Shown one piece after another: positions 25,977-58,223 of a stretch of DNA of 64,000 nt. Source of the stretch: an uncultured Lachnospiraceae bacterium (GTDB taxonomy: Bacteria; Bacillota; Clostridia; Lachnospirales; Lachnospiraceae); assembly GCA_947173495.1 (NCBI GenBank), contig CAMWFQ010000017.1, forward strand, positions 19,018 through 83,017, read 5' to 3'. Made by a program: the position numbers and the translations under genes. The notes beneath the pieces were generated by a model. It saw only the letters and a program-made list of their open reading frames with translations. It ran no database searches and was not told the DNA's origin. Numbering within the stretch: position 1 is the first letter of the stretch; each line of letters starts with the position of its first letter.

Positions 25977-27353
25977 TCAACTGAAAAAGATACTGTAACT
26001 GCTTTCTGAGACAAGCATATTTGACCACAGCGATATTAACAACAGCCCAATCAGAACAAAAAGAACCAATATCTTTGCATAATTTACATGTATATACTCT
26101 TTTAATTTTCCCCAGTCCGTATGATATCCAAGAACCCCTGTTGCCACTAAATACAAAGGAGCAAAAAATCTCGTTTCCACAGCTCCCGGCAATATAAACA
26201 GAACAGGGATCAACAGTGCAAAATAGTTAAGCCAGACGTTGGTAAATTTCATACATCTGTTTAGAAGTACCATGCCAAAAGAGAAAAACAATACATATGC
26301 CAGAAGTGCCGGAACCAGTTTTTGATTATCCAGATCCACCACATACTGTTCCGGCCAGCAGGGAAGCAGCATATTAACCAAATGTCTGACATAAATTCCT
26401 GCCATTTCCACAGGATGCTTCCAGATAAATCCAAAAAAATCGCTCCAGGACGAGAACTCAATGATTTCTGTTCTTTCCACCAGCGCTCTCCCTACCGCAT
26501 CTGTGAAAACTGTCTGCGGCATGGGATGCTGTTCCATTTGTTTTGTACCAATATATGTATCATATCTCTGGGTCTGAAGCCCCCAATAGAGCTGCTTGAG
26601 CATCAGACCTGATGTTGGCACTTTCATACTGAGAATTCCCAGATTATGATAATTCATATACCCCTGAGGCGCCCCCCCCAACAGGCCTCCGGCAAGCGCT
26701 CCAAGCACTGCTGTCATCTTACTGACAATACTTTTGCCCGATCGATACAAATGCCAGATAAATAACAGTACTAGATAAATACCCGGGAACAAATAAATCG
26801 TTCTGACATTATAGACCACATATACCACTGCACCAAACAAAACGCTAAGGCCGGCTCCATAAAGCCATCTGCTCTCTCCTCTGACCCTGTTTTCAAGGAG
26901 CACCGCTGTTCCACAAAGCAGCATCGCCATAAAATCTGACAAAGAATATACTTCCAGTCCCCAGAAAAAAAAGCTGAAAATCAAAAAACATAAAAAAGAG
27001 GTGATCGCTTCCCTCCATCCTTCGCCCTTTTCAGATCTTTGAAGATCGGGAAAAATAAACGTAAAAAATAACGAAACCAATAGTGCATTGACTATTTTAT
27101 AGCAGGTTTCCCCTCCTATTTTATTACAGATTCCCAAATAAAGCGGAAATACATATCCCCTGAATCCATCCTTCATATTCAACAGTGAAAACGACTGCTC
27201 CTCATCCCACAAACTGACCCCTCTGTTCCAATAATTTCCTGCATCATAGAGGCGAACCAGTTCTATCCGGCTGTAAATCAGCATCATTGCTATAAAAATC
27301 AAAATAAAGCCGAAGAATCTTTTATTCTTTTTTTCATCTTTTAGCATCTTCAT
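25977..27353 (-). CDS. Multi-TM membrane protein, possible GT-C
   Basis: About 458 aa, YDAGNYW loop after TM1; contains an in-frame G8 tract. Confidence 0.5.
   Translation of the reverse strand: MKMLKDEKKNKRFFGFILIFIAMMLIYSRIELVRLYDAGNYWNRGVSLWDEEQSFSLLNMKDGFRGYVFPLYLGICNKIGGETCYKIVNALLVSLFFTFIFPDLQRSEKGEGWREAITSFLCFLIFSFFFWGLEVYSLSDFMAMLLCGTAVLLENRVRGESRWLYGAGLSVLFGAVVYVVYNVRTIYLFPGIYLVLLFIWHLYRSGKSIVSKMTAVLGALAGGLLGGAPQGYMNYHNLGILSMKVPTSGLMLKQLYWGLQTQRYDTYIGTKQMEQHPMPQTVFTDAVGRALVERTEIIEFSSWSDFFGFIWKHPVEMAGIYVRHLVNMLLPCWPEQYVVDLDNQKLVPALLAYVLFFSFGMVLLNRCMKFTNVWLNYFALLIPVLFILPGAVETRFFAPLYLVATGVLGYHTDWGKLKEYIHVNYAKILVLFVLIGLLLISLWSNMLVSESSYSIFFS
26672..26679 (-). repeat. G8 tract (in frame) in a membrane protein gene
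   Basis: C8 on the plus strand, within codons for LGGA. Confidence 0.8.
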
Positions 27354-27354
27354 G

Positions 27355-29199
27355 TTATTTTTCCTCACATATCGGGAATCCGCTGATATCATAAATTACA
27401 ATGTTATATCCCGTACTCCCGCCCGCCAATAACTTCTCTGCCAGCTGAATATTGGAGTAAATCAGCTTAAGATCTATCCAACTGTGCTCTCTTTCTGAAA
27501 CCAATACTCCTGCTCCGCCAAACACATCCGGCACAATGCTTTCAAACGTCTTGACAACCGGACAATGTTCCTCTAATGTCAGATGCGCCTGAGAATCCCC
27601 CAACTTTGTATTGACGATCACAAAATCTGCTTCCCGTGTTTTATATATCTGATCTCTCTTTACCAGTACATCTGTCAGGTCATCTGGCTGAATTGTTCCC
27701 TTTTTGCTGATCCACCCTCCGGGAACAAACCCGGTATAATACTCTGACAGGCTGTTGTCCGGCGTGATTCCATTGGCATCGCAAAAATCTTCCTGGATCA
27801 GCCTTGTGTCCTGTCCGCTTCTTACCGCAACAATTACTTCTATCAAGCTGCCGGTACCCAGGTCCAAGGCTAAGATCAAAGTCATTAATACCCCCAGCAC
27901 CTTTACCCACAAGTACCTGCAGCGAACACAGAGCCAGACCCCCATACCTGCCAGTAACAAAAGATCCAGATAGAATTCCAGTCCCCATCTGAAAAACCCC
28001 CTGTTCATGAAACAGAGCACCAACAGCTTCAGAACTCCCAACAGGAAAATAATATATTGTCTGCAAAAATTTCTGACAAAATAAGCGCCTCCTATTATCA
28101 GCAAAATGATGAAGATCATTCCGGCAATATGAAGGAAACTCTGATCTACATACTGCTTTAACTGTAAAAAATACGGAGGTCTCTCTCCTCCATCATATAC
28201 GGCAATATTAATAAACCCGTCCACAATAGCGGTCTTAAAGTGCTGTACCATATTGGGTGCAAAAATCCCCAGATTTATCACATAGCACAGCAGGGCGAAC
28301 AGGCCTTTTCTGATCACCTCACTGATATGTTTACTGTTCAGAAGAATCACCAGCGCAATATATGCACATCCGATTGCACCATGCCATTTCTCCAGTGTTG
28401 CCAGCGCCGATGCCATGGACATAAAATAAATAAAGCACTTCCTCTTCTCTTCCATGTAGCGCAGGCTGAACAACAGCAAAAGAGTTAAAAAGAAAAATGC
28501 CGTTATATCCCCCGTGACCTGCTTGGCCATCAATATATATGTGGGATACAGCGCAGAAAGCAGGCATGCAATCACCCCCAAATGCTTCTTCAGATAATTT
28601 CCAATGAGAAACACCAGAAGAACTGATCCGAGGCCAAAGGCGGCAACGACATATCTGTTAATAAAATAAGCCTGTATCATTTCATATGTGACAGGCGTCG
28701 CTGTCAGCCTGCTGTAGACATAAGTAATGACAGCAGCAATCTTGGAAGTAAACTGATTGGGATAATAGAAAGAGGAAGAATACAGGTGACGTCCCTGTGC
28801 CATTTCAATTGCAGATCCTACCAGCTTACACTCATCAGGCTGGAAAATACTTGTCCCGCCCCAATTGCATCCGGCAAATCTCAGAACCCCGCCTGCAGCT
28901 AATATAACCATTAATAAGATGATGTCTAATCTGTTAATATGATATCTTGCATGGAATCTATGAATATACGCTCCAAGTGAATAGTCATCCGCCCATTTCC
29001 TGATGTCAGTCAGGCGGAATATCAGACAGGATATCAGCCTTGCTGCCAACATTGTTGTTCCAAAGTATAAAAGCCTCCCTTTCATTCCCTTCTCAAAACA
29101 AAAACGCCCTATGTCTGTAGAACCAAAGAAGTAGGCGAGAATCAAAAAAAGTGTTATGTCTGCCATTATAAAAACTGTTTTTTGCTTATATGACTTCAC
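27355..29199 (-). CDS. GT39/ArnT-like glycosyltransferase
   Basis: WGGTSIFQPDE motif, multi-TM; GTG start with RBS. Confidence 0.75.
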   Translation of the reverse strand: MKSYKQKTVFIMADITLFLILAYFFGSTDIGRFCFEKGMKGRLLYFGTTMLAARLISCLIFRLTDIRKWADDYSLGAYIHRFHARYHINRLDIILLMVILAAGGVLRFAGCNWGGTSIFQPDECKLVGSAIEMAQGRHLYSSSFYYPNQFTSKIAAVITYVYSRLTATPVTYEMIQAYFINRYVVAAFGLGSVLLVFLIGNYLKKHLGVIACLLSALYPTYILMAKQVTGDITAFFFLTLLLLFSLRYMEEKRKCFIYFMSMASALATLEKWHGAIGCAYIALVILLNSKHISEVIRKGLFALLCYVINLGIFAPNMVQHFKTAIVDGFINIAVYDGGERPPYFLQLKQYVDQSFLHIAGMIFIILLIIGGAYFVRNFCRQYIIFLLGVLKLLVLCFMNRGFFRWGLEFYLDLLLLAGMGVWLCVRCRYLWVKVLGVLMTLILALDLGTGSLIEVIVAVRSGQDTRLIQEDFCDANGITPDNSLSEYYTGFVPGGWISKKGTIQPDDLTDVLVKRDQIYKTREADFVIVNTKLGDSQAHLTLEEHCPVVKTFESIVPDVFGGAGVLVSEREHSWIDLKLIYSNIQLAEKLLAGGSTGYNIVIYDISGFPICEEK

Positions 29200-29477: not shown

Positions 29478-30974
29478 ATGCTTTTCAACTCATTACAATT
29501 TTTATGTTTTTTTCCTATAGTGGTATTCATTTATTTTCTTATTCCCCATAAACTTAAAAATTACTGGCTGCTCCTGGCAAGTTATTATTTTTATATGTGT
29601 TGGAACGCTAAATATGTTGTACTGATTTTGTTTACAACAATCATTACATATGTAAGCGGTCTGTTGTTAGAACGGGTAAATCAGAGAGTTCATTCGGAGA
29701 GAAGGAAAGGATTGCTCAAACAATCTATTGTTTCCTTAAGTCTTCTGACAAACCTTTCACTCCTTCTATACTTTAAATACTTCAACTTCATAATAAATAT
29801 CCTTGCCAACCTGCTAAGCCGCATCCATATTCAGCTTCATTTTCAGGAATTTGACATCCTTTTGCCTGTAGGCATTTCATTTTATACATTTCAGGCCCTT
29901 TCTTATACAATGGATGTGTATCGGAAAGAAATTCCCGCGGAAAAGAATTTTTTCCAATATGCACTGTTTGTCTCCTTTTTCCCACAACTAGTCGCCGGCC
30001 CTATCGAGCGATCCAAAAACTTGTTATGTCAGTTAACTCTGCCAAAAAAATTTGATTATAAAAAGGCCAAAGAGGGGCTTTGGCTGATGTTATGGGGGTT
30101 CTTTCTTAAGCTTGTACTGGCTGACAGAATTGCATTATTCGTTGATACAGTCTATGGCAATTATACTGACTATGCCGGAGGGTATCTGATTACTGCAACC
30201 ATTCTTTTTGCTGTTCAGATTTACTGCGATTTTTATGGCTATTCCATTATTGCCATTGCAGCAGCCAAAATTCTCGGAATTGATTTAATGGAAAATTTTG
30301 ATGCGCCATACCTTTCCACTTCCGTAGCCGGCTTCTGGCGTAAATGGCATATATCCCTTACCTCATGGTTCAAAGACTATTTGTATATTCCATTGGGCGG
30401 CAGCAGAAAAGGCCGACTTCGTAAATATTTTAACAAATTATTTGTTTTCCTGCTTAGCGGTCTATGGCATGGCGCTTCATTTTCCTTTGTTATGTGGGGA
30501 GGTCTGAACGGTTTTTATCAGATTATTGGGGAAATATTGCAGCCTGTAAGAAATACGGCAACTGCCATCCTTCATCTGAACAGAAATTCTTTAGCTCACA
30601 AAATTATACATGTTATCGGAACATTTCTTCTGGTAGACTTTGCATGGATTTTCTTCCGTGCAAGCAGTTTTAAAGTATCTCTTGAAATAATTAAAAACAT
30701 GTTCAGCGTTCACAATCCATGGATATTTTTTGATGGTTCTATTTATAATTGCGGCCTGGACAGTAAAAATTTTGGTCTTCTACTGATCTGCTTATGTATC
30801 CTTTTGTTTGCAGATTACTGTAAACATAAAAATATTAAAATCCATGAAATCATTGTCCAACAGGATTACTGGTTCCAATTATTGTTTATGACTTTCTCTA
30901 TTTTCTTTATTCTCACATTTGGAATATGGGGACCGGGATATGACGAAACAAATTTTATTTATTTTCAATTTTAA
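29478..30974 (+). CDS. MBOAT family O-acyltransferase
   Basis: LPVGISFYTFQAL, FFPQLVAGPIER, DFYGY, FWRKWH, SGLWHGA, FIYFQF end. Confidence 0.92.
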   Translation: MLFNSLQFLCFFPIVVFIYFLIPHKLKNYWLLLASYYFYMCWNAKYVVLILFTTIITYVSGLLLERVNQRVHSERRKGLLKQSIVSLSLLTNLSLLLYFKYFNFIINILANLLSRIHIQLHFQEFDILLPVGISFYTFQALSYTMDVYRKEIPAEKNFFQYALFVSFFPQLVAGPIERSKNLLCQLTLPKKFDYKKAKEGLWLMLWGFFLKLVLADRIALFVDTVYGNYTDYAGGYLITATILFAVQIYCDFYGYSIIAIAAAKILGIDLMENFDAPYLSTSVAGFWRKWHISLTSWFKDYLYIPLGGSRKGRLRKYFNKLFVFLLSGLWHGASFSFVMWGGLNGFYQIIGEILQPVRNTATAILHLNRNSLAHKIIHVIGTFLLVDFAWIFFRASSFKVSLEIIKNMFSVHNPWIFFDGSIYNCGLDSKNFGLLLICLCILLFADYCKHKNIKIHEIIVQQDYWFQLLFMTFSIFFILTFGIWGPGYDETNFIYFQF

Positions 30975-30985
30975 AGAGGGATCAA

Positions 30986-31996
30986 ATGACTAGAAAACAG
31001 ACTCTAAATGCCATCATCAGTTTTGTTCTTATAATCAGTATATTGGTTTGTTTGATTTTTTATACTGGCCACCTATTCCGCCCTTTGGATCCTGACAGCT
31101 CAATTGGGGCAATTAATGCTTTCCATTCTATGCCCGAGAATTCCCTTGAGGTGATCGTATATGGTTCAAGCCATGCCTGGGTCGGTTTGAATGTTATGAA
31201 AATGTATGAAAAATACGGAATTGGTATTTATAATTATGGATGTAACCGTCAACGTCTTAACACGACAGCATTATTCTTTCATGACTCTTTGAGGTCACAA
31301 TCTCCAAAGTTAATACTGATTGAGACGTACATGGTAAATAATCTGGCATTTGATATTGATATTTGTGATGAAATTTATTACACCCGGGCCATTCGTCCTT
31401 TTGACGCCAAAAAAAGATATCTAAAGCAATGCTTTGGCGATAATCTGGAAAGATATTTATCTTATTATGTTCCCTTTACAGCCTTTCACAGCAACTGGAA
31501 CAATCTGCAAAAAGCAAGCTTTGAAGAAACGACAGATCAGTTTCAGATCAACTTCTGCCAGACAATGGGATATCTCCCCATAGAAACTGTTGTTCCAATC
31601 GAAATTGCAGATTACAGGACCTATGAGCAGCGCGATATCTCCGATGAATCAAAGGAAATTCTTGATGACATTGTACAAGTGTGTAATGAGAAAAATATCC
31701 AGATACTATTTTATACCGCGCCCTACCAGGGCAGACATCACTATTTTAACGCTATGGCAGATTATGCAGCAGAAAACGGTTGTCAATATATTAACCTCTT
31801 TGAAAAAATGGATGAAATCGGAATCGATGACCAAACAGATTTCTATAATGAAGGGCACCTGAATACCAGCGGTGCTCTCAAAACAGCTGATTATCTTGGG
31901 CAGTATATTATTGATCACTATGAACTTACGGATATGAGGCAAATAGAGGGAAATATATGGGAACAAAATCTCAGGATTCTGGCTGAAGAAGACTGA
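30986..31996 (+). CDS. SGNH/DltD-like partner of MBOAT
   Basis: N-terminal TM, VYGSSHA, FYNEGHLN. Confidence 0.7.
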   Translation: MTRKQTLNAIISFVLIISILVCLIFYTGHLFRPLDPDSSIGAINAFHSMPENSLEVIVYGSSHAWVGLNVMKMYEKYGIGIYNYGCNRQRLNTTALFFHDSLRSQSPKLILIETYMVNNLAFDIDICDEIYYTRAIRPFDAKKRYLKQCFGDNLERYLSYYVPFTAFHSNWNNLQKASFEETTDQFQINFCQTMGYLPIETVVPIEIADYRTYEQRDISDESKEILDDIVQVCNEKNIQILFYTAPYQGRHHYFNAMADYAAENGCQYINLFEKMDEIGIDDQTDFYNEGHLNTSGALKTADYLGQYIIDHYELTDMRQIEGNIWEQNLRILAEED

Positions 31997-39251: not shown

Positions 39252-40310
39252 ATGACAAAATTTATGAACACCTCAAATCATAGAATGATTGGATTAGATC
39301 TATTCAGAGTCATAGCAGCTTTTACCGTATTTCTTTTTCATTCTTCCATCCATATGGGATGTACTTATGGAATCTTTCAGGATTTTGTAAGCATGGGAGC
39401 CGTGTTTATGACCGGTTTCTTTCTTCTTTCTGGTTTTGTAATATTTAAAACCTACAGTAAAAGAGAAATAACTAAAATATCTGAGATAAAAAATTTCTAT
39501 TTAAAAAGATTAATCACATTAATTCCAGTTTATTATGTAACTGCACTTTTATACACCTTAACTTTAGATTCAAAAAACATCGTCGATAATCTTTTCTTGG
39601 CTCCCATTGAATTATTGGGGATTCAGTCGACTTTCAGTTCATTATTCAGTTATTCGCACAATGGCGGTACGTGGTTCATTTCCTGTTTGATAATTTGCTA
39701 TCTGATTTATCCCTATATTCAGGAACTTGTCCTCCAAATCTCACTGAAAGGCAGATTTATCATTTTCGTTCTATGCTGCTTCATTTTGCTGTATGCACCT
39801 GTGATTGTTATTATATTCAAGACGGCAAATATTTATTCAAATCCTTTCTATCGATGTCTTGAGTTTATAATCGGGATCCTGTCGGCTTCTATCATTGAAA
39901 ATACCTCCGACAGCCGTCAGTATCATTTGCTGCGGACATGGAAATTCTTTTGGATAGAATTGATACTCTTCATCGCCGGTATTTCTCTCGCAGTAAAATT
40001 AAATTTATTTGTTAATGATTATATGCTTTATAACTGGATTAATCTTCCGCTTTCTATTCTGATGATCTGTACGCTGTCAGGTGTATCATCAGAAAAGATG
40101 CAGAATTCCCGGATCATCTCTTATCTCGGATCAATATCTTATTGTTTCTTTTTAGCTCAATTTTTTACATGGAAATTGACGGCTTTTATCCTCAGGATAA
40201 TAAATCAGGACAGCAACTTATTCAAAATAATCACATCTCTAATTATTTGTACTATACTATCAATACTACTTTATGAACTGGTTGAAAAGCCATTTAAGAA
40301 ATTATTGTAA
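39252..40310 (+). CDS. Acyltransferase family 3 O-acyltransferase
   Basis: GLDLFR..AA..VFLFH, FFLLSGF, GTWFISCL, LGSISYCFFL, YELVEKP. Confidence 0.88.
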   Translation: MTKFMNTSNHRMIGLDLFRVIAAFTVFLFHSSIHMGCTYGIFQDFVSMGAVFMTGFFLLSGFVIFKTYSKREITKISEIKNFYLKRLITLIPVYYVTALLYTLTLDSKNIVDNLFLAPIELLGIQSTFSSLFSYSHNGGTWFISCLIICYLIYPYIQELVLQISLKGRFIIFVLCCFILLYAPVIVIIFKTANIYSNPFYRCLEFIIGILSASIIENTSDSRQYHLLRTWKFFWIELILFIAGISLAVKLNLFVNDYMLYNWINLPLSILMICTLSGVSSEKMQNSRIISYLGSISYCFFLAQFFTWKLTAFILRIINQDSNLFKIITSLIICTILSILLYELVEKPFKKLL

Positions 40311-40868: not shown

Positions 40869-42989
40869 CTAAATGACCTTGGTTCCTCTCTTTCTGTAAA
40901 AGATTATTTTGTTCACTCCATATCCACCTTCCTCTGGCGTAATCCGGGAAAAATTATCGCTATTGTTGATATAATCCCAAAAGGGTAACAAAGAATAATC
41001 GTGATAATCCAGACCGTTTTCAGGTAATAATATGGCGCCTATATTCAGTTTTTCAATCGCCATTTCTATCTCTTCGCTTGTCTTAGCCTGTATAAGATCT
41101 TCTGCATAGGGATGGTATAACAATTTAGGAGTTCCTTTTAAATAGAATAAGAGCACCTGATCATGAGTAAAAACATCACCATCCGTGACAGATGAAATAA
41201 TATCGGCCATTCTCTCATATTCATGGCGGGTATTTATACAAGCCTCAACATACGCCTTATTATATGTATTGCAACGTATTACTTCAGCACGAATAAAAAA
41301 CATAAGCATCACTATGCAAATAGCAAATGACATTCCAGTCAGAATCTTGGTGTTGTACCTTCTCGTTAAAAGCCATGAACCTGTTACCGCAAGCAATAAT
41401 AAAAAATACATCCTATATCGAAGTTGTTCTGCAAACCATAATGATACCTCCCACCCTATCCAATCCATAATTCCGGTCATTGGAAGCAGCATACCTATAA
41501 CCAGCAAGGAAAAAGACAAATTCTTCTTATTTTTCTCTCTCCATGCTGTTATTATCATTAGAATCAGTCCGATAATTCCGAGAAGCATCATAAATCTTAC
41601 AGACCATGTATATGTTGACCATATGGTTGATCTATCTGCTCTGTTACTATTTATAGCTGCAATTTGTTCAATCACAGGAGTGTCATGAAACGGCAAAAGC
41701 GTCCAACTTTTCATTCTACCCGTTGTAAGATAGATCGAGAGTGTTTTTGTTATCCCCAACAATGTACCAGCTAAGACTGATATACCACAAGATATTAGAT
41801 GTCTAATTGGTGTTTTCATTATCAGTAGTAATATCCCCACCACTATAAACATCCCGAGCATGATATAAACATTACCCTCATGGCCATTCATAGATAAATA
41901 GCAGAACAAAAACATGGCAACGTATTCAAACCATTTTCCACCGCCCATAGTGATATTTTCGATTTGATTTACTACGAAAATAACGAGTAGCATTAGTGAC
42001 GCAAACCTGAACGCATCCCTGGATCCAACCACCATTAGCATAGAATATGTGTATATATGGAATAAGACAAGAGACAAAACTCCTGCACGATATGTACCTC
42101 CGCCATATGACGCCAATATAAACAAAAAAATATCAAAGCAAAAATATACCCAAAATATTGTGATATTAACACATCTTAAGGAATCATCAATGCCTACTGT
42201 ATCGGCCACTATATTAGCATCTGCAAGATACATAATCCACAAAGGACCATGGTCATCAGGCATAGAAGAACCATATTTATCATCCGTATAGTTATCTACT
42301 TCCCAAGAATTCTTGTCCTCTAGGAAATATCTCGCATTAAGTTCATAATGTGCTCCGTCTGAATCTATTCCTGGTCTTCCAGTCATGGAGAGAGCATGTG
42401 CTGTTGCTGTACCGATTATAATCAGCAGAATCGTCAAATACGCATTTCTCTGAAGCGTTCCAACCTTTATCATCTTCAAGATCAGAAATATAACACCTAT
42501 AGCACATATGCATCCCCACAAACTAACTATTATTAATCCTACAGTATTCAATGAATGGTATATTTCTAATATATATATCTTCAGATTAATTCCATTATAT
42601 ATAAGCGAAAAGAGTAAAGTCACTCCAGTAGCAATAAATGCGTCAAAAATAAAGCAAAACCCTATTTTTCTAACGTATCCTATACAATACCTGAGTATTG
42701 ACCTGCAGGCTTCTATTGTAATAAGGTAATTTTTTTCTATAAATATATAAATCATCGCCCAAAAAATTGGCATAAAAGAATAGAACCAGCTATCCCAACC
42801 GATGAAAACTAGTCCAAGCAAATAATCTTCCAGACTCACCACCATTGGTGCAGATGCCACACCTATAATCATAGTTTGCCCATCCGTTAATTTCTTAAAC
42901 AGGCTCAATTTTATAAAAATTGTCCCGATTGCAAGCCCTAGGATCAACATTCTCATAAAATATAGAATCATTGTTAATATTTCTATCAT
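40869..42989 (-). CDS. Large multi-TM protein, probable GT-C glycosyltransferase
   Basis: 706 aa, DSDGAHY and DDHGPL loops, many TMs, soluble C-terminus. Confidence 0.55.
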   Translation of the reverse strand: MIEILTMILYFMRMLILGLAIGTIFIKLSLFKKLTDGQTMIIGVASAPMVVSLEDYLLGLVFIGWDSWFYSFMPIFWAMIYIFIEKNYLITIEACRSILRYCIGYVRKIGFCFIFDAFIATGVTLLFSLIYNGINLKIYILEIYHSLNTVGLIIVSLWGCICAIGVIFLILKMIKVGTLQRNAYLTILLIIIGTATAHALSMTGRPGIDSDGAHYELNARYFLEDKNSWEVDNYTDDKYGSSMPDDHGPLWIMYLADANIVADTVGIDDSLRCVNITIFWVYFCFDIFLFILASYGGGTYRAGVLSLVLFHIYTYSMLMVVGSRDAFRFASLMLLVIFVVNQIENITMGGGKWFEYVAMFLFCYLSMNGHEGNVYIMLGMFIVVGILLLIMKTPIRHLISCGISVLAGTLLGITKTLSIYLTTGRMKSWTLLPFHDTPVIEQIAAINSNRADRSTIWSTYTWSVRFMMLLGIIGLILMIITAWREKNKKNLSFSLLVIGMLLPMTGIMDWIGWEVSLWFAEQLRYRMYFLLLLAVTGSWLLTRRYNTKILTGMSFAICIVMLMFFIRAEVIRCNTYNKAYVEACINTRHEYERMADIISSVTDGDVFTHDQVLLFYLKGTPKLLYHPYAEDLIQAKTSEEIEMAIEKLNIGAILLPENGLDYHDYSLLPFWDYINNSDNFSRITPEEGGYGVNKIIFYRKRGTKVI

Positions 42990-43089
42990 TTCACATCACC
43001 TCCTTTATAATATTCTGTTTATAAATTAATTTAACTACCTACATTTTTAAAATTAGACTCTCTAATATTACTATATAGATAAAATATTA

Positions 43090-44934
43090 TCATTCTTGAC
43101 TCCACGATTTATAATACATTGATATCCTTCCGTCAAAATAGACATCATTTATGATAGAGAATTGGATGATATTCTTCAGCAATTTGACGGCAGCATTATC
43201 TCCGTTTCTAGCCAAGCTTATGATATTGTCCACAGTGCCATATTTATCAAGATTAAATATTCCGTTTTCCGATATATCATCACTATAGACTATATTGGGC
43301 AGGGAAGGATTCTCCAGCATTGCGTCATCCGCAAATTGGAATATATTGGTATATTTGGTTTTATGACCACCTAATTTCCCCCTGATAAAATTTAATACTG
43401 TCACGAAATCCGTAGTCACACAATGTGATTCCCTGACAGGTCTTCCTGTTTCTGAATGAGGACACGCTGCAGCTTTAGGATAATAGTCCTGTATCAAGCG
43501 TATATACAGACGCTGCCCATATCTATACGTTTGTGGAAGCGAATTAAAAAAGTTCACAACCCGATAATCATATACTGGGAGCCTGACCGGAATAAACTGA
43601 TCTGTAATCGCCATAGAAGGCATTGTGATTCTCCGCTCTATGGATCTAAGCTTCAGCCGCATTGTATAATTCCCAAATGTGATCCCTTTTTCAGCTTCGT
43701 TAATTGCTTTATTATAATCCTTTTTTAGTTCCTCCCAGGAATTTGTTATTATTGGACCATAATATTTCGTGTCATATGCAGGCTGTCTTCCTCGTGTAAT
43801 ATCTTTTAAGAGTCTTTTCTTATGTTTTTCTTTCCTTCTTTTGGTCATCTTAGCACTCATAAAGGGTATCAAGCCTGTGAAATTGCTCTTTTGTCCTGAA
43901 ATAGCATCTCCTCCGATCCCAGCCAATTCAACACTCTGCGCAATCTTGTACTTCTCCTTGGCGGCAGCTAACTGATAAAATTCTTCATGATGGCACTGCC
44001 CGCCCGTACGAATTACAGTTTCTCTTGCAATATCAGTATAGTCTAGTCCAGCAAAGTTCAAATAGTGATGGTCTGTGTTGTACGCTTTCGCAAGAGCACT
44101 TGCACCTACAACGTCACCGCTGTTAGGGCACCCAAAATTAAACGAAGAAACATTTTCCCCATCAAGAATCGCCAAAATGAGCCTCGAGTCAAACCCACCG
44201 CTTAAACCAATAATATTTGCCCTGGTGCTCTTTCTACATAGTACCGCATCTCTATATAAATCATTGAGTTCTCCCAGATAGTCCTTCTTCGATTTATTCT
44301 TTTTACCGTTGCATCTAGGCAATTCCCAATATGTATCCGTGCTAATCCCATTTTTGTTCACAATTATTCTCTGTGCTGGCAAAATATAATTCACATTCTT
44401 AAAAAAAGTTCTGTCTTCCAAGCAATAATCAAATGATAAGTATTCTGAAATCCCGATATAATCCGGCTCAAAGTCTTTCACCTGCCTTAACAACATTGGA
44501 TCCTGCGAAAAATAAAAACCCCTGTCATTTATTATTGTATAAAACACAGGATATATGCCAAATCTGTCATTATAAATCTTTAATTCTGAATTTTTTTTAT
44601 CATATATTGCAACGACAAATGCTCCGTTAAGGCTTTCTATTGCCTTCTCGCCTTTATCCGTCAGCAGTTTCCCTAATTCACTACCTGTTCTGACTGGATA
44701 ATCTTCTATTGAATTTGTATCATCATCGACGATGCCATACCCTTCACCAAAGAAAGCTATGACAAATTCCTCTGTTTCAAATATTGCATTTCCCCGCCAT
44801 GCAAGATCATAACATCCTATCTGACATTTGTCCCCATTCCATTCGTATCCGACATATTGCTCAGAAAACGCAGTCTCCGCGTGGTTAATGCGAATCTTTT
44901 TATTCATTGAAAAACAACCATATAGTCCTTGCAT
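43090..44934 (-). CDS. Asparagine synthetase B-like amidotransferase
   Basis: LNGAFVVAIYD..NDRFG..PVFY, GLSGGFDSR, LAGIGGD; no N-terminal Cys. Confidence 0.8.
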   Translation of the reverse strand: MQGLYGCFSMNKKIRINHAETAFSEQYVGYEWNGDKCQIGCYDLAWRGNAIFETEEFVIAFFGEGYGIVDDDTNSIEDYPVRTGSELGKLLTDKGEKAIESLNGAFVVAIYDKKNSELKIYNDRFGIYPVFYTIINDRGFYFSQDPMLLRQVKDFEPDYIGISEYLSFDYCLEDRTFFKNVNYILPAQRIIVNKNGISTDTYWELPRCNGKKNKSKKDYLGELNDLYRDAVLCRKSTRANIIGLSGGFDSRLILAILDGENVSSFNFGCPNSGDVVGASALAKAYNTDHHYLNFAGLDYTDIARETVIRTGGQCHHEEFYQLAAAKEKYKIAQSVELAGIGGDAISGQKSNFTGLIPFMSAKMTKRRKEKHKKRLLKDITRGRQPAYDTKYYGPIITNSWEELKKDYNKAINEAEKGITFGNYTMRLKLRSIERRITMPSMAITDQFIPVRLPVYDYRVVNFFNSLPQTYRYGQRLYIRLIQDYYPKAAACPHSETGRPVRESHCVTTDFVTVLNFIRGKLGGHKTKYTNIFQFADDAMLENPSLPNIVYSDDISENGIFNLDKYGTVDNIISLARNGDNAAVKLLKNIIQFSIINDVYFDGRISMYYKSWSQE

Positions 44935-44990: not shown

Positions 44991-46469
44991 TTAGTATTCG
45001 ACACTTAACTGCAAATTCTGTCCACCACATTTTGCATCAACTACTAAAATTCCGTGCTCACCGATTGGCAAATCAAAGGATTTGTTCTCATCATATTCCT
45101 GAATCACTTCAGAATATTTTTCTACCTCTGTTTTCTCGTCGATTACTGTTCTAATAATTCTATACTCCATATCATTTCTGTTAGAAGCGACAGAATAATG
45201 TCTGGCGGAATAAATCGGACTGCCATCTGTATTAATATTGCTCGTAGGGCCTATATCCCTGTAATATAGTCCATATATTTCAGGTTCCTCGCTGGACAAT
45301 TTTCCTTCATAAGATTCAAAAAACCTGACGCTATTTTCTTCTTTTGTTCCACTCAACACATTCCATAATACCGGCGTGAACAATTCTTGGCCTCTACCAT
45401 TAAGATGACCAATATCCATAAACAGATCCCCGTCTTTTATGTCAAGATAATCATCCTTAATCAGATTAAAATCATATATTTCAATTCTATACTCATCTGC
45501 TATATTTTTAAGCTCACAAATATATTTGTCATAATCCTCTGTACTTATTAGCTGCAAATCATAAACAGGTGAAATATACATCTTTGTATTTATCCCCTTC
45601 TCCTGCAACATTTCAAGGGGTTTCCTTATATATTTTTCGCTATTATTTCCTATCCCATATCTGTTAAAATTCCTGTCAGCCTCTAATAATTTTTCCTGAT
45701 CCAATAATCTCAAATTTTCAGAAAACCAAATTCCTTTCTCGTAATATTCTACAAACCCAGCCGTGCCATCCACATCTACCAAGTTTTCATGATATGTACC
45801 GTCATTAAACTCATCACTGTTCTTTATCTCAATATTAGTTTTTATTTGCTCCCAGTTAAAGATATTTTGCCTATACCGTACAAATGGAAAAATTGTTTCC
45901 AGCATATGTTCCTCATCAGATGAATTCAACAACATAATAAAGGAATTATAGGATGGTTTCATTTCATACGTAATAAGCCATGGTCTTGAAAAATTATCCG
46001 GGGAATCCATCCAATCCACGACTTGATATTCTTCAATTTCCTTATCCCAAATCTCATATTCCGTACTCATCCTATGATAACATTCCAGATATACACTTTT
46101 TATATCATATCTCTCTATCGCATCCTTTAATAAATAATAAGTGTTATCCCATCTCTGTCCAGGAGTAGCCAGATTAAAATTATTCTCTCCATTAATATTA
46201 TCAAGTATGCGGGGGTCAATATCACAATATACATGAGATGACCCCAGAAAAATATTATCAATATTGTCTTGATCATAGTATGATTTGAACAATATTCTAT
46301 GATAAGGGTCATATGTCACATACATATAGTTCAGCCTATTGCATATTGATAGCAAGATAATAATTCCTAGCAAAGTCTCTACTACAGGTTTTATTATTCG
46401 AACCAGTATGCTTCTAAAATTGAAAGTAGATAAAGTTTTGTGTATCATACTCTGTTCCATAACATCCAA
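44991..46469 (-). CDS. SGNH-like partner of MBOAT with C-terminal extension
   Basis: FLGSSHV, NLATPGQ, FMDIGHLN; start uncertain, overlaps the MBOAT 3' end. Confidence 0.7.
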   Translation of the reverse strand: MDVMEQSMIHKTLSTFNFRSILVRIIKPVVETLLGIIILLSICNRLNYMYVTYDPYHRILFKSYYDQDNIDNIFLGSSHVYCDIDPRILDNINGENNFNLATPGQRWDNTYYLLKDAIERYDIKSVYLECYHRMSTEYEIWDKEIEEYQVVDWMDSPDNFSRPWLITYEMKPSYNSFIMLLNSSDEEHMLETIFPFVRYRQNIFNWEQIKTNIEIKNSDEFNDGTYHENLVDVDGTAGFVEYYEKGIWFSENLRLLDQEKLLEADRNFNRYGIGNNSEKYIRKPLEMLQEKGINTKMYISPVYDLQLISTEDYDKYICELKNIADEYRIEIYDFNLIKDDYLDIKDGDLFMDIGHLNGRGQELFTPVLWNVLSGTKEENSVRFFESYEGKLSSEEPEIYGLYYRDIGPTSNINTDGSPIYSARHYSVASNRNDMEYRIIRTVIDEKTEVEKYSEVIQEYDENKSFDLPIGEHGILVVDAKCGGQNLQLSVEY

Positions 46470-47891
46470 ATAAAATAATATATAATAATAATCCGATTAT
46501 AGAAATGGTTCTGAACCACCAGTGCTGATTAAAAAAAGCCTCTATTACATCTTTCCCCATATATTTTTGATAATCCACAATTCCAAGGATCATGATTGCA
46601 ATTATGACAACATTACAATACTCTCTTGTAATTTCCATATCAAATAAAGATCCATCAAGTAAAACCAGCCAATCCCCGTGACTTATCTTCCCCTTTAAAA
46701 TTATTCTTAATAATGGCAAATTGCCTGCTCTGAAAAGTAGCCATGCAAAACATACCATGACAAACGTAAGAATCACTTTCAGAACTCTATCCGAAAAAGT
46801 GACCCCTGTTTCGCCAAGATCAAAAATCCTACGCACCTTACAACAAATCCCGCTTATAAAAAACTCAAGGATCTGATATATCCCATGCAGTCCTCCCCAT
46901 ACCACAAATGCAAGGCTGGCACCATGCCATAATCCGCTTATGGCAAATACCACCATTAGGTTCACATATTTTCTGATAATGCCATTTCTATTGCCTCCCA
47001 ACGGGATATATAAGTAGTCCCTGAACCATGTTGAAAGGGAAATATGCCATCTTCTCCAAAACTCCTTAATGCTCTTAGAATAATAGGGAGCGTTGAAATT
47101 ATCCATCAATTTAATTCCCATCGTAAGTGCGGTGCCTCTTGCTATAGTTGAATATCCGTAAAAATCGCAATATATCTGTATGGAGAAAAGAACGGTTGCA
47201 ATTACAATATAGACTCCCTGATATTTATCCGGCTTGTCAAACACCATATCTACAAATACGGCAATCCTGTCAGCTATTACGACCTTAAGGAAAAAACCAT
47301 AAAGCATTATGAGAAGACCTCTCCTTAAATTCTCATAGCTGAACCTGCCTGGCATAGCAAGCTGTTTTAGAAGATTTTTTGAACGCTCAATAGGTCCTGC
47401 TACGAGCTGTGGAAAAAACGCTATAAAAAGAGCATACCTGAAAAAATTTCGTTCTGCATATATCTCCTCCCTGTAAACGTCAATTAAATAGCCTATAGCT
47501 TGCAACGTAAAAAAAGATATTCCTACAGGAAGGATAATCAAATTTTCCCACGGTATTTCTTTTTTCCCCACTAAAGCCATAATTTTATTCAAATACTCTA
47601 TAAGCATATTGGCATATTTGAAATACCCTAATACAGCCAGATTTACGAATATTATAAAATACAGGCATATTTTCCTTTCTCTTACTTCATGTATTTTATT
47701 TAAAAGCAATCCGCCTATATATGTAACAACTGTAGAAAAAAACAAAAGTAATACATACTGTGGATTCCATTGCATATAAAAGTAATAGCTTACTCCCAAA
47801 AGCCATAAATATCGATATTTCGAGGGGATAATGTAATACCCCCCCATGCTATCGGAAAAAAAATTAAAAACTGGCTTGAATTAAATAGCAT
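46414..47891 (-). pseudogene. MBOAT O-acyltransferase frameshifted near its 5' end (G7/T8 tracts)
   Basis: RBS-preceded ATG at 47891 encodes MLFNSSQFLIFFPIA but is 1 nt out of frame with the 47847-46414 ORF, which carries all MBOAT motifs. Confidence 0.75.
47839..47863 (-). repeat. Homopolymer tracts G7 (47839-47845) and T8 (47856-47863) on the coding strand
   Basis: Counted directly; both lie at the frameshift site. Confidence 0.85.
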
Positions 47892-47958
47892 TTTGCATCT
47901 CCATAATATACGCCTTTAGCCATTTTTATCTATCTACGTTTGATAACAACAAAATTGC

Positions 47959-56857: not shown

Positions 56858-57667
56858 TTACTTCTTATCTTTTCTTATATAATCTAATAGCAATCCAAGT
56901 TCATCGGCATATCCGAGCATTTTAAAATCATCGGCATATCGCTTATATACTTTATATGCTGTATTTTCATCATAATAATCACGCCAATCTATTTTTTGTG
57001 AATTAGCTTGATTCGCGTGTCGTATTTCATCCAGATTACTCCTCTCTTGAATTGCTGAAAAATCCTCTTTAATGTTTTCAATCTTACCAATAAAATCAAC
57101 AAGAGACCTGTCGTTTTCGTATAAAATGCTCACTTGAGATATGAATGTTTGGTCAGAACGGCTGTCTGGTGTCTTGCATACCCTGTTCGCAAATTCCTTA
57201 AATCCCTTATCTTTTTTAAAACTCCCCCACATATATGAATCATATTCACGTACACGTCTTCCGTTGACGTAAACGTCCTTGTGGTACCTGTATTCATAGC
57301 AGCTAACAAGTCTCGAAAAAGGATTTCTTACTATTGAAAATTTATAATAATCTTCCGTATCTAACGGTGGCTTTCCATAATGAATCAATCCTCGTTTTTC
57401 CATCTCTATATGAATGTCGTTTTCATTATCCGGTTTATATGATATAAAACTTTCTTGTATTGAAGAGCATGCAACTTTGGGATTTATCATATATATAACC
57501 TTCCTGTCATCATCCCTTATATACTGCCTCCGTCTCATAGTGCCAAATACAAATAAATTAACGGTATCATATAAATTCACGGCAATGAATCGTAACAGTT
57601 TGGAACGGCTAAGAATATTGTGCAACACTACTATTATTTTCCTATTCTCAATCATTCTATCCTTCAT
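56858..57667 (-). CDS. Sulfotransferase family 2 (carbohydrate sulfotransferase-like)
   Basis: 5'-PSB motif NPKVACSSI, 3'-PB motif FSIVRNPFSRLVSCY, DFIGKIE, YADDF..LGY. Confidence 0.85.
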   Translation of the reverse strand: MKDRMIENRKIIVVLHNILSRSKLLRFIAVNLYDTVNLFVFGTMRRRQYIRDDDRKVIYMINPKVACSSIQESFISYKPDNENDIHIEMEKRGLIHYGKPPLDTEDYYKFSIVRNPFSRLVSCYEYRYHKDVYVNGRRVREYDSYMWGSFKKDKGFKEFANRVCKTPDSRSDQTFISQVSILYENDRSLVDFIGKIENIKEDFSAIQERSNLDEIRHANQANSQKIDWRDYYDENTAYKVYKRYADDFKMLGYADELGLLLDYIRKDKK

Positions 57668-58223
57668 TTATAATCTCCAATATTAGCGTATGCCCAAGTC
57701 TCGGATATTTTCTAAACAAACACTCAAAGGGCAAAAACCTGATTTCCCCCGTCACTTTTCCATATTTTTCAAGATCATCCACGTTAAACAGCCACTTTAC
57801 ATTTTTCAAATCGCCCCAAGTATCTAAACCAATTGCTTTCTTTATTATATCCCACGGGGATTTACCGTTCGGAACAAGAATAACGATACGCCCCCCCCGA
57901 ACGCATATTCGTTTCATCTCCAATATAAACTCGTCAAGTGAACAATCTAAATATTCCGCCACAGCGCATGCCCATATACAATCAAAAGTATCATCATCAA
58001 AAGATGTTTTTGCAGCATCACCAAGAACCTTATTATCATAATTAAGATTCTCCAAGGTCTCCTTGTCCACATCCAGTATGGTTACATCGTCAGATGCAAA
58101 ATAGGGTAGATAACATCCCAAACCGCCTCCAACATCTAAAATCCTACCAGACATTTTATTCGCACATTCAATTCTATACTTTGTAATTTCTGTCTTATGT
58201 AGGCTCTCATTATAATTGCTCAT
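57657..58223 (-). CDS. Class I SAM-dependent methyltransferase
   Basis: ILDVGGGLG, DDTFD, GGRIVILVPN. Confidence 0.85.
   Translation of the reverse strand: MSNYNESLHKTEITKYRIECANKMSGRILDVGGGLGCYLPYFASDDVTILDVDKETLENLNYDNKVLGDAAKTSFDDDTFDCIWACAVAEYLDCSLDEFILEMKRICVRGGRIVILVPNGKSPWDIIKKAIGLDTWGDLKNVKWLFNVDDLEKYGKVTGEIRFLPFECLFRKYPRLGHTLILEIINEG
57891..57898 (-). repeat. G8 tract (in frame) in the methyltransferase gene
   Basis: C8 on the plus strand, within codons for RGG. Confidence 0.8.

Follow-up and report, generated by a model that had tools for sequence, protein, structure and literature searches.

The minus strand of the 64,000-nt stretch of DNA analysed here (the window, to which all positions refer unless a contig is named) carries an operon that encodes a sulfate ABC transporter, CysD, CysNC, CysQ, a sulfotransferase, a flippase and methyltransferases. 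The distal part of this operon contains a pair of genes for an MBOAT acyltransferase and an SGNH-fold partner protein, and no terminator-like site was found between cysA and the MBOAT gene. Genes for CysA, an AsnB-like amidotransferase, a 706-aa membrane protein and an AT3 protein are neighbours of the MBOAT gene, and the substrate of the pair is likely to be a sulfated surface polysaccharide. Downstream of the pair, at 40869-44934, the AsnB-like amidotransferase (614 aa) and the 706-aa protein, which is a multi-pass membrane protein with no family match, probably provide further glycan-modifying functions.

The MBOAT gene is broken near its start. A Shine-Dalgarno sequence, GGAG, at 47902-47899 is spaced 7 nt from an ATG at 47891-47889, and the frame that opens there (47891-47790, minus strand) spans 33 codons, reading MLFNSSQFLIFFPIAWGGITLSPRNIDIYGFWE before a TAA that ends at 47790. 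The gene body itself is intact and runs for 477 codons from a second ATG at 47847 to 46414, where the G of this ATG is the first base of a run of seven Gs (47839-47845; C7 on the plus strand). An earlier note on this DNA had observed that the first ATG has a ribosome-binding site and that the second lies 44 nt downstream, and this spacing indeed places the two frames one base out of register. The note's proposal that G8 would repair the gene was also borne out: the addition of one G in silico gave a 492-aa MBOAT protein beginning MLFNSSQFLIFFPIAWGGYYIIP / MLFNSSQFLIFFPIAWGGYYIIPSKYRYLW, and the restored MLFNSSQFLIFFPIAWGGYYIIP can be aligned gap-free with the paralogue at 29478 (MLFNSLQFLCFFPIVVFIYFLIP). 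ATG 47891 yields MLFNS, which comparison with orthologues identified as the conserved N-terminus of the MBOAT family. The tract therefore lies within the 5' coding region, at codons 16-18 of the full-length gene (TGG GGG GGG in the sense reading, W-G-G), and its length toggles the frame between a 33-aa stub with G7 (OFF) and a 492-aa protein with G8 (ON).

A T8 run at 47856-47863 had been put forward as a second site at which a one-base change would repair the frame. Lengthening it to T9 does restore the frame, but a role as the switch was ruled out: the run encodes I-F-F and is coding-constrained, T9 converts P-I-A-W to S-D-S-M with loss of the nearly invariant Pro13, and the run was T8 in every assembly seen. 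Similar T7-T8 runs are present in a few MBOAT orthologues.

The MBOAT body matched the Pfam family MBOAT (PF03062) with 107.7 bits against a cut-off of 27, along with MBOAT_2, and it matched the DltB structures 6bug and 8jem with E-values of about 1e-24. Residues H283 and H323 (492-aa numbering), in WHxSLSxW and GxWHG motifs, are invariant in 32 sequences and are aligned with DltB 6bug. Identity as DltB itself, the D-alanylation protein of DltABCD systems, was rejected, as the DltB equivalog model TIGR04091 scored 158 bits against a cut-off of 375 and neither dltA nor dltC was present among the neighbouring genes inspected at the locus.

The partner gene (44991-46448, minus strand, 485 aa) overlaps the 3' end of the MBOAT gene by 35 nt, and its product comprises an N-terminal membrane helix, a DltD-like SGNH domain and a C-terminal beta-sandwich. 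Sequence searches of Pfam, NCBIfam and the PDB gave no match for this protein, and a fold search alone identified it: the AF2 model has a pLDDT of 94, and the top Foldseek matches were DltD structures from three species (6pfx, 3bma and 6o93), followed by SGNH esterases and PatB. Its invariant residues G69, S71, H348 and N350 fall in Gly-Ser and His-x-Asn motifs, and a homologue is named 'SGNH/GDSL hydrolase family protein' by NCBI. From the predicted fold, the protein that adjoins the MBOAT is a probable extracytoplasmic acyl transferase. MBOAT family membership, the two conserved His residues and the DltD-like partner together point to an AlgI/PatA-type two-component O-acylation module, whose acyl group and glycan target are guessed at from the protein family.

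Tract length in public assemblies

A census of tract length was taken across independent public assemblies by pattern counting of the G run in the DNA that surrounds the 477-aa and 492-aa products and in that next to cysA, a neighbouring gene; the look-up through cysA is independent of the state of the MBOAT gene and therefore provides an unbiased census. By exact-sequence look-up, the protein collection contains the 477-aa product as well as the 492-aa product predicted for G8. This comparison, which the earlier note had asked for, showed G7 in 11 of the 12 assemblies checked by DNA, namely this genome and 10 other samples (SRR13528211/212, SRR14811561/571/620, ERZ13632040/41, ERZ12802723, SRR20792813 and SRR12398546), and G8 in the remaining one, SRR20792820, which encodes exactly the predicted 492-aa protein. 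G7 is thus the commonest state among public assemblies. A 453-aa product also found in the collection is an alternative start call on G7 DNA, and from their products (477 aa or 453 aa), not from DNA, we infer that six further contigs are G7.

The SRR20792820 contig aligned to this genome with a BLAST score of 23069 bits over 12,802 bases, where a perfect contig would score 23088, and this difference corresponds to two one-base indels and about 1 SNP over 12.8 kb. One indel is the additional G in the MBOAT tract and the other is the loss of one base in the tract of a methyltransferase gene of the same operon (G8 to G7). These two tracts are the sole G/C runs of at least 7 in the 12.8 kb, and none of the nine A/T runs of at least 7 in the same interval was changed. 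A platform artefact is unlikely given that the two indels are opposite in direction and the A/T runs are unaltered. Invariance of the tract across populations, which the earlier note had named as grounds for abandoning its proposal, was rejected by this G8 on otherwise near-identical DNA, and judging from these contigs the MBOAT tract is a mutational hot spot.

An orthologous MBOAT locus was not found by DNA search of 40 related genomes, and a pattern scan of JGI metagenomes for the tract at any length gave no match. Several of the assemblies are of low coverage, and single assembly calls are fallible. For example, an Acyl_transf_3 gene (39252-40310) is split in ERZ13632040 (5.4x) by two T>G changes 11 nt apart (TAT to TAG). 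We rejected this as a homopolymer event, and the two clustered changes in this low-coverage contig are probably errors.

Poly-G tracts in the genome and its relatives

Around 50 MBOAT orthologues in which the gene start is readable, extending to roughly 40% identity, were inspected, and none has a G run of at least 5 in its first 90 nt. Where this MBOAT has A-W-G-G, the orthologues have hydrophobic residues (VVLI, VILG, VVAG), which indicates that the tract is a lineage-specific novelty in a conserved segment.

A homopolymer scan of the genome (4.58 Mb, 46.7% GC) located 59 G/C runs of at least 7, which divide into 39 G7 runs and 20 of at least 8. The chance that a G/C run is one base longer stays at 0.12-0.13 as far as length 7 and climbs to 0.34-0.35 beyond it; 20 runs of at least 8 were observed against 7.4 expected (P = 1e-4) and seven of at least 9 against 0.93 expected (P = 5e-5). 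A/T runs show the opposite trend, with an extension probability that drops steadily from 0.31 to 0.08. Since the MBOAT tract is one of only 59 such runs in 4.58 Mb and its length varies among otherwise identical assemblies, its coincidence with the frame break is beyond chance. On the G strand, five of the 20 runs of at least 8 (25%) are followed by TATT, an arrangement (Gn-TATT) seen after one of the 39 G7 runs, the MBOAT tract alone, and after 0.56% of background G4-G6 runs (P = 1e-6). The reading frame across Gn-TATT differs from gene to gene, which marks it as a DNA-level signature.

The G/C runs of at least 8 are located in genes for three Acyl_transf_3 acyltransferases, three methyltransferases, a PlsC-type acyltransferase, an N-acetyltransferase-DUF4910-MaoC fusion, a weakly Wzy-like membrane protein, a GH3 glycosidase, a solute-binding lipoprotein, a long sortase-type coiled-coil surface protein and a secreted protein. 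Going by these annotations, long G/C runs in this genome are mainly found in genes for glycan decoration or surface proteins. At G8-G9 tracts, a further six genes are frameshifted here: an Acyl_transf_3 gene (C4:207082, given as contig and position), a methyltransferase (C8:146154), the solute-binding lipoprotein (C8:23195), the GH3 glycosidase (C3:66118), the sortase-type coiled-coil surface protein (C18:59174) and the secreted protein (C17:13906). For the first four of these, the exact predicted in-frame product is present in other assemblies beside broken forms. The acyltransferase tract has ON and OFF forms within each of two SNP-defined lineages as well as a G10-type form, while the methyltransferase is ON and OFF across several SNP backgrounds. 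Read across these lineages, the pattern at the sister tracts is one of recurrent switching and not of a single old mutation.

The methyltransferase of the MBOAT operon (188 aa, gene 57657-58223, minus strand) carries its G8 tract at 57891-57898 and is ON here. The tract is G8 in this genome and in four other assemblies checked by DNA, and G7 in SRR20792820, where the gene is split into products of 125 and 82 aa (OFF). It is G9 in at least four assemblies, including a 15.6x SPAdes contig, and products that match both the G9 and the G7 OFF forms are found in the protein collection. This tract appears to be a more active switch than that of the MBOAT gene.

MutS and MutL genes are intact in this genome, meaning that the poly-G system does not require a mismatch repair defect. 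Of 25 genomes of this genus, 20 contain tracts of G9 or longer, with up to about 13 per genome, but such tracts are present in few genomes from the order's other families. The use of poly-G switches may be characteristic of the genus.

A candidate slipped-strand switch and its alternatives

We consider it likely that the tract is a slipped-strand poly-G switch in an MBOAT O-acyltransferase gene that is OFF in this genome. The earlier note had proposed a phase-variable MBOAT in its OFF state, and the proposal is now supported by the existence of the G8 form, by the polymorphism of the tract and by sister glycan genes that occur ON and OFF in public assemblies. As far as genome and assembly comparisons can tell, the locus is a real and naturally polymorphic poly-G locus of the contingency type, OFF here, and one of a genome-wide set. 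In the proposed mechanism, the MBOAT (AlgI/PatA/DltB type) and its DltD-like SGNH partner would O-acylate, and probably O-acetylate, the surface polysaccharide of the surrounding sulfated-glycan operon, with the lineage-specific G run at codons 16-18 serving as the slipped-strand switch. With G8, the 492-aa enzyme would be made. With G7, ribosomes starting from the only ATG served by a ribosome-binding site would halt after 33 codons, leaving no enzyme, and the overlapping partner gene would probably lose translational coupling too. The switch is presumed to be reversible within a clone; the acyl donor and target are inferred, and a selective benefit, such as escape from phage or antibody, is conceivable. 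Because G7 and G8 are short as tracts for efficient slippage go and MutS/MutL are intact, switching is expected to be less rapid than in Campylobacter.

One competing account is that of a sequencing or assembly artefact, in which the true tract is G8 and G7 was miscalled, or in which SRR20792820 holds the reverse error. Homopolymers are classic error sites and the low-coverage assemblies used here contain probable errors, yet 11 assemblies, which span at least six accession series and different assemblers, agree on G7, the tract changes in SRR20792820 are opposite in direction with no A/T run of at least 7 altered, and the sister methyltransferase tract is G9 in the 15.6x SPAdes contig and three further assemblies. 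We judge an artefact to be highly improbable. The earlier concern that a homopolymer assembly error could explain the frame break was dismissed on the strength of G7 in this genome and 10 independently assembled samples from several studies; as judged by these assemblies, G7 at the MBOAT gene is the true sequence. Somewhat better placed, although still unlikely in our view, is a fixed frameshift or young pseudogene: the gene would have been lost by a G8-to-G7 deletion, the tract would be a mere hot spot and the single G8 a relic of the ancestral state, an uncommon revertant or an error, with no adaptive switching. The predominance of G7 (11 of 12 assemblies) and the intact mismatch repair genes are in keeping with such a loss, as is the intact paralogous MBOAT-SGNH pair at 29478-31996, which could cover the function. 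With one ON assembly in 12, a single mutation event followed by drift could still account for the MBOAT tract. However, a decaying gene does not readily explain the lack of a second lesion in the 477-codon body, the nature of AWGG/poly-G as a derived insertion into a conserved hydrophobic helix or the Gn-TATT signature that the tract shares with the other variable tracts of the genome. The recurrent ON/OFF changes of sister tracts in separate SNP lineages and the second, opposite tract change on the G8 contig also argue for switching.

It is also conceivable, but quite improbable, that the OFF state is leaky and that the tract tunes expression instead of switching it. Working enzyme would then be made in the G7 state by initiation at ATG 47847 or ATG 47775, by slippage during transcription or by a ribosomal frameshift at the G7 or T8 run. 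ATG 47847 is in frame and is the start chosen by gene callers, and homopolymer slippage by RNA polymerase is established in other bacteria; against this, the transcriptional slippage that is known mostly requires A/T runs of 9 or more. The bases that precede ATG 47847, TTCCGATAGC, contain no Shine-Dalgarno sequence, and the 477-aa product would begin at residue 17, without residues 1-16 and hence without most of predicted helix 1 (residues 5-21), the invariant residues F3, N4 and F11 and the near-invariant P13. A usable, slightly shortened protein from the internal ATG, which the earlier note had allowed for, is therefore unlikely. Returning to the slipped-strand reading, the locus is most likely a pathogen-style slippage switch that has been caught OFF in a gut commensal, and the MBOAT gene should be recorded in annotation as an intact gene in OFF phase.

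Relation to known switches

Slippage-driven surface variation is textbook knowledge for mucosal pathogens. Campylobacter jejuni, which lacks MutS/MutL mismatch repair, carries poly-G contingency genes in its capsule, LOS and flagellar-glycosylation loci. The system proposed here resembles that of C. jejuni in that intragenic poly-G frameshifts would toggle glycan-decorating methyl-, acyl- and amino-transferases at many loci per genome, concentrated in low-GC glycan islands, and differs from it in the intact MutS/MutL, the Gram-positive-type gut commensal host and the shorter tract (7/8). We know of no phase-variable MBOAT in Campylobacter. The wciZ and icaC genes encode AT3-type membrane acyltransferases. 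Slipped-strand switching of polysaccharide acyltransferases has been described for these genes, in Streptococcus pneumoniae (wciZ, serotype 15B/15C) and Staphylococcus aureus (icaC) (PMC4432689, PMC4117637). As in these cases, repeat slippage inside an O-acyltransferase gene, reversible there and presumed so here, would toggle a decoration while polymer synthesis continues. Unlike wciZ and icaC, in which the repeats are TA or tetranucleotide units, the repeat here is a G homopolymer and the enzyme is an MBOAT whose SGNH partner is a separate protein.

Two-component O-acylation is represented by AlgI-AlgJ/AlgX for alginate, PatA-PatB for peptidoglycan and DltB-DltD for teichoic acid D-alanylation (PMC4432689; PDB 6bug, 6pfx). 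The pair described here shares with these systems the succession of an MBOAT and an extracytoplasmic SGNH-fold protein, both MBOAT His residues and the invariant Ser and His of the partner, but is set apart from DltB-DltD by the sub-threshold DltB score (158 versus 375 bits) and the lack of dltA and dltC in the locus. In comparison with the three systems together, its partner has an additional C-terminal beta-sandwich and no Pfam match, and the target is probably a sulfated heteropolysaccharide.

Among gut commensals, a poly-G switch of sortase-dependent pili has been reported in Bifidobacterium breve (PMC9187656). Both cases feature poly-G replication slippage with ON and OFF states in a gut commensal, in B. 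breve with apparent selection in vivo, but the B. breve switch governs pilus genes and not a glycan acyltransferase, and its host is an actinobacterium. Mycobacteria lack MutS/MutL. Homopolymer-tract phase variation is documented in Mycobacterium tuberculosis, for example at the 7C tract of glpK (PMC10334774). The glpK tract is likewise a 7-to-8 base G/C homopolymer in coding sequence with frameshift polymorphism across genomes, which in M. tuberculosis is reversible and recurrent, but glpK is a metabolic gene linked to drug tolerance. A full-text literature search returned nothing on poly-G phase variation in Lachnospiraceae or gut Clostridia, or on a phase-variable MBOAT.

More tentatively, and with slightly less than even confidence, we suggest that the species, and perhaps the whole genus, possesses a poly-G 'phasome' of the Campylobacter kind even though its mismatch repair is intact. 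About a dozen tracts, many of them with the Gn-TATT flank, would independently toggle O-acylation, O-methylation, other glycan decorations and several surface proteins, with the MBOAT and the operon methyltransferase as two of these, and the resulting combinatorial variants in the gut would hedge against phage and host antibody. If commensal Lachnospiraceae do toggle acylation, methylation and surface proteins in this way, it would be wrong to write off 'frameshifted' genes of their genomes and MAGs as pseudogenes or errors, tract lengths would be worth tracking in strain-level metagenomics, and stochastic ON/OFF populations may shape the interactions of IgA and phage with these bacteria.

The sole MBOAT-ON sample, SRR20792820, has its operon methyltransferase OFF, a single case that may be coincidence or may mean that the two decorations are alternatives. 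Elsewhere in the window, a 471-aa multi-pass membrane protein with a weak Wzy_C match (25977-27392) contains a G8 tract at nt 713 (C8 at 26672-26679) and is in frame here. The cluster of this protein includes fragments of 231-236 aa, which could be either OFF forms or truncations at contig ends.
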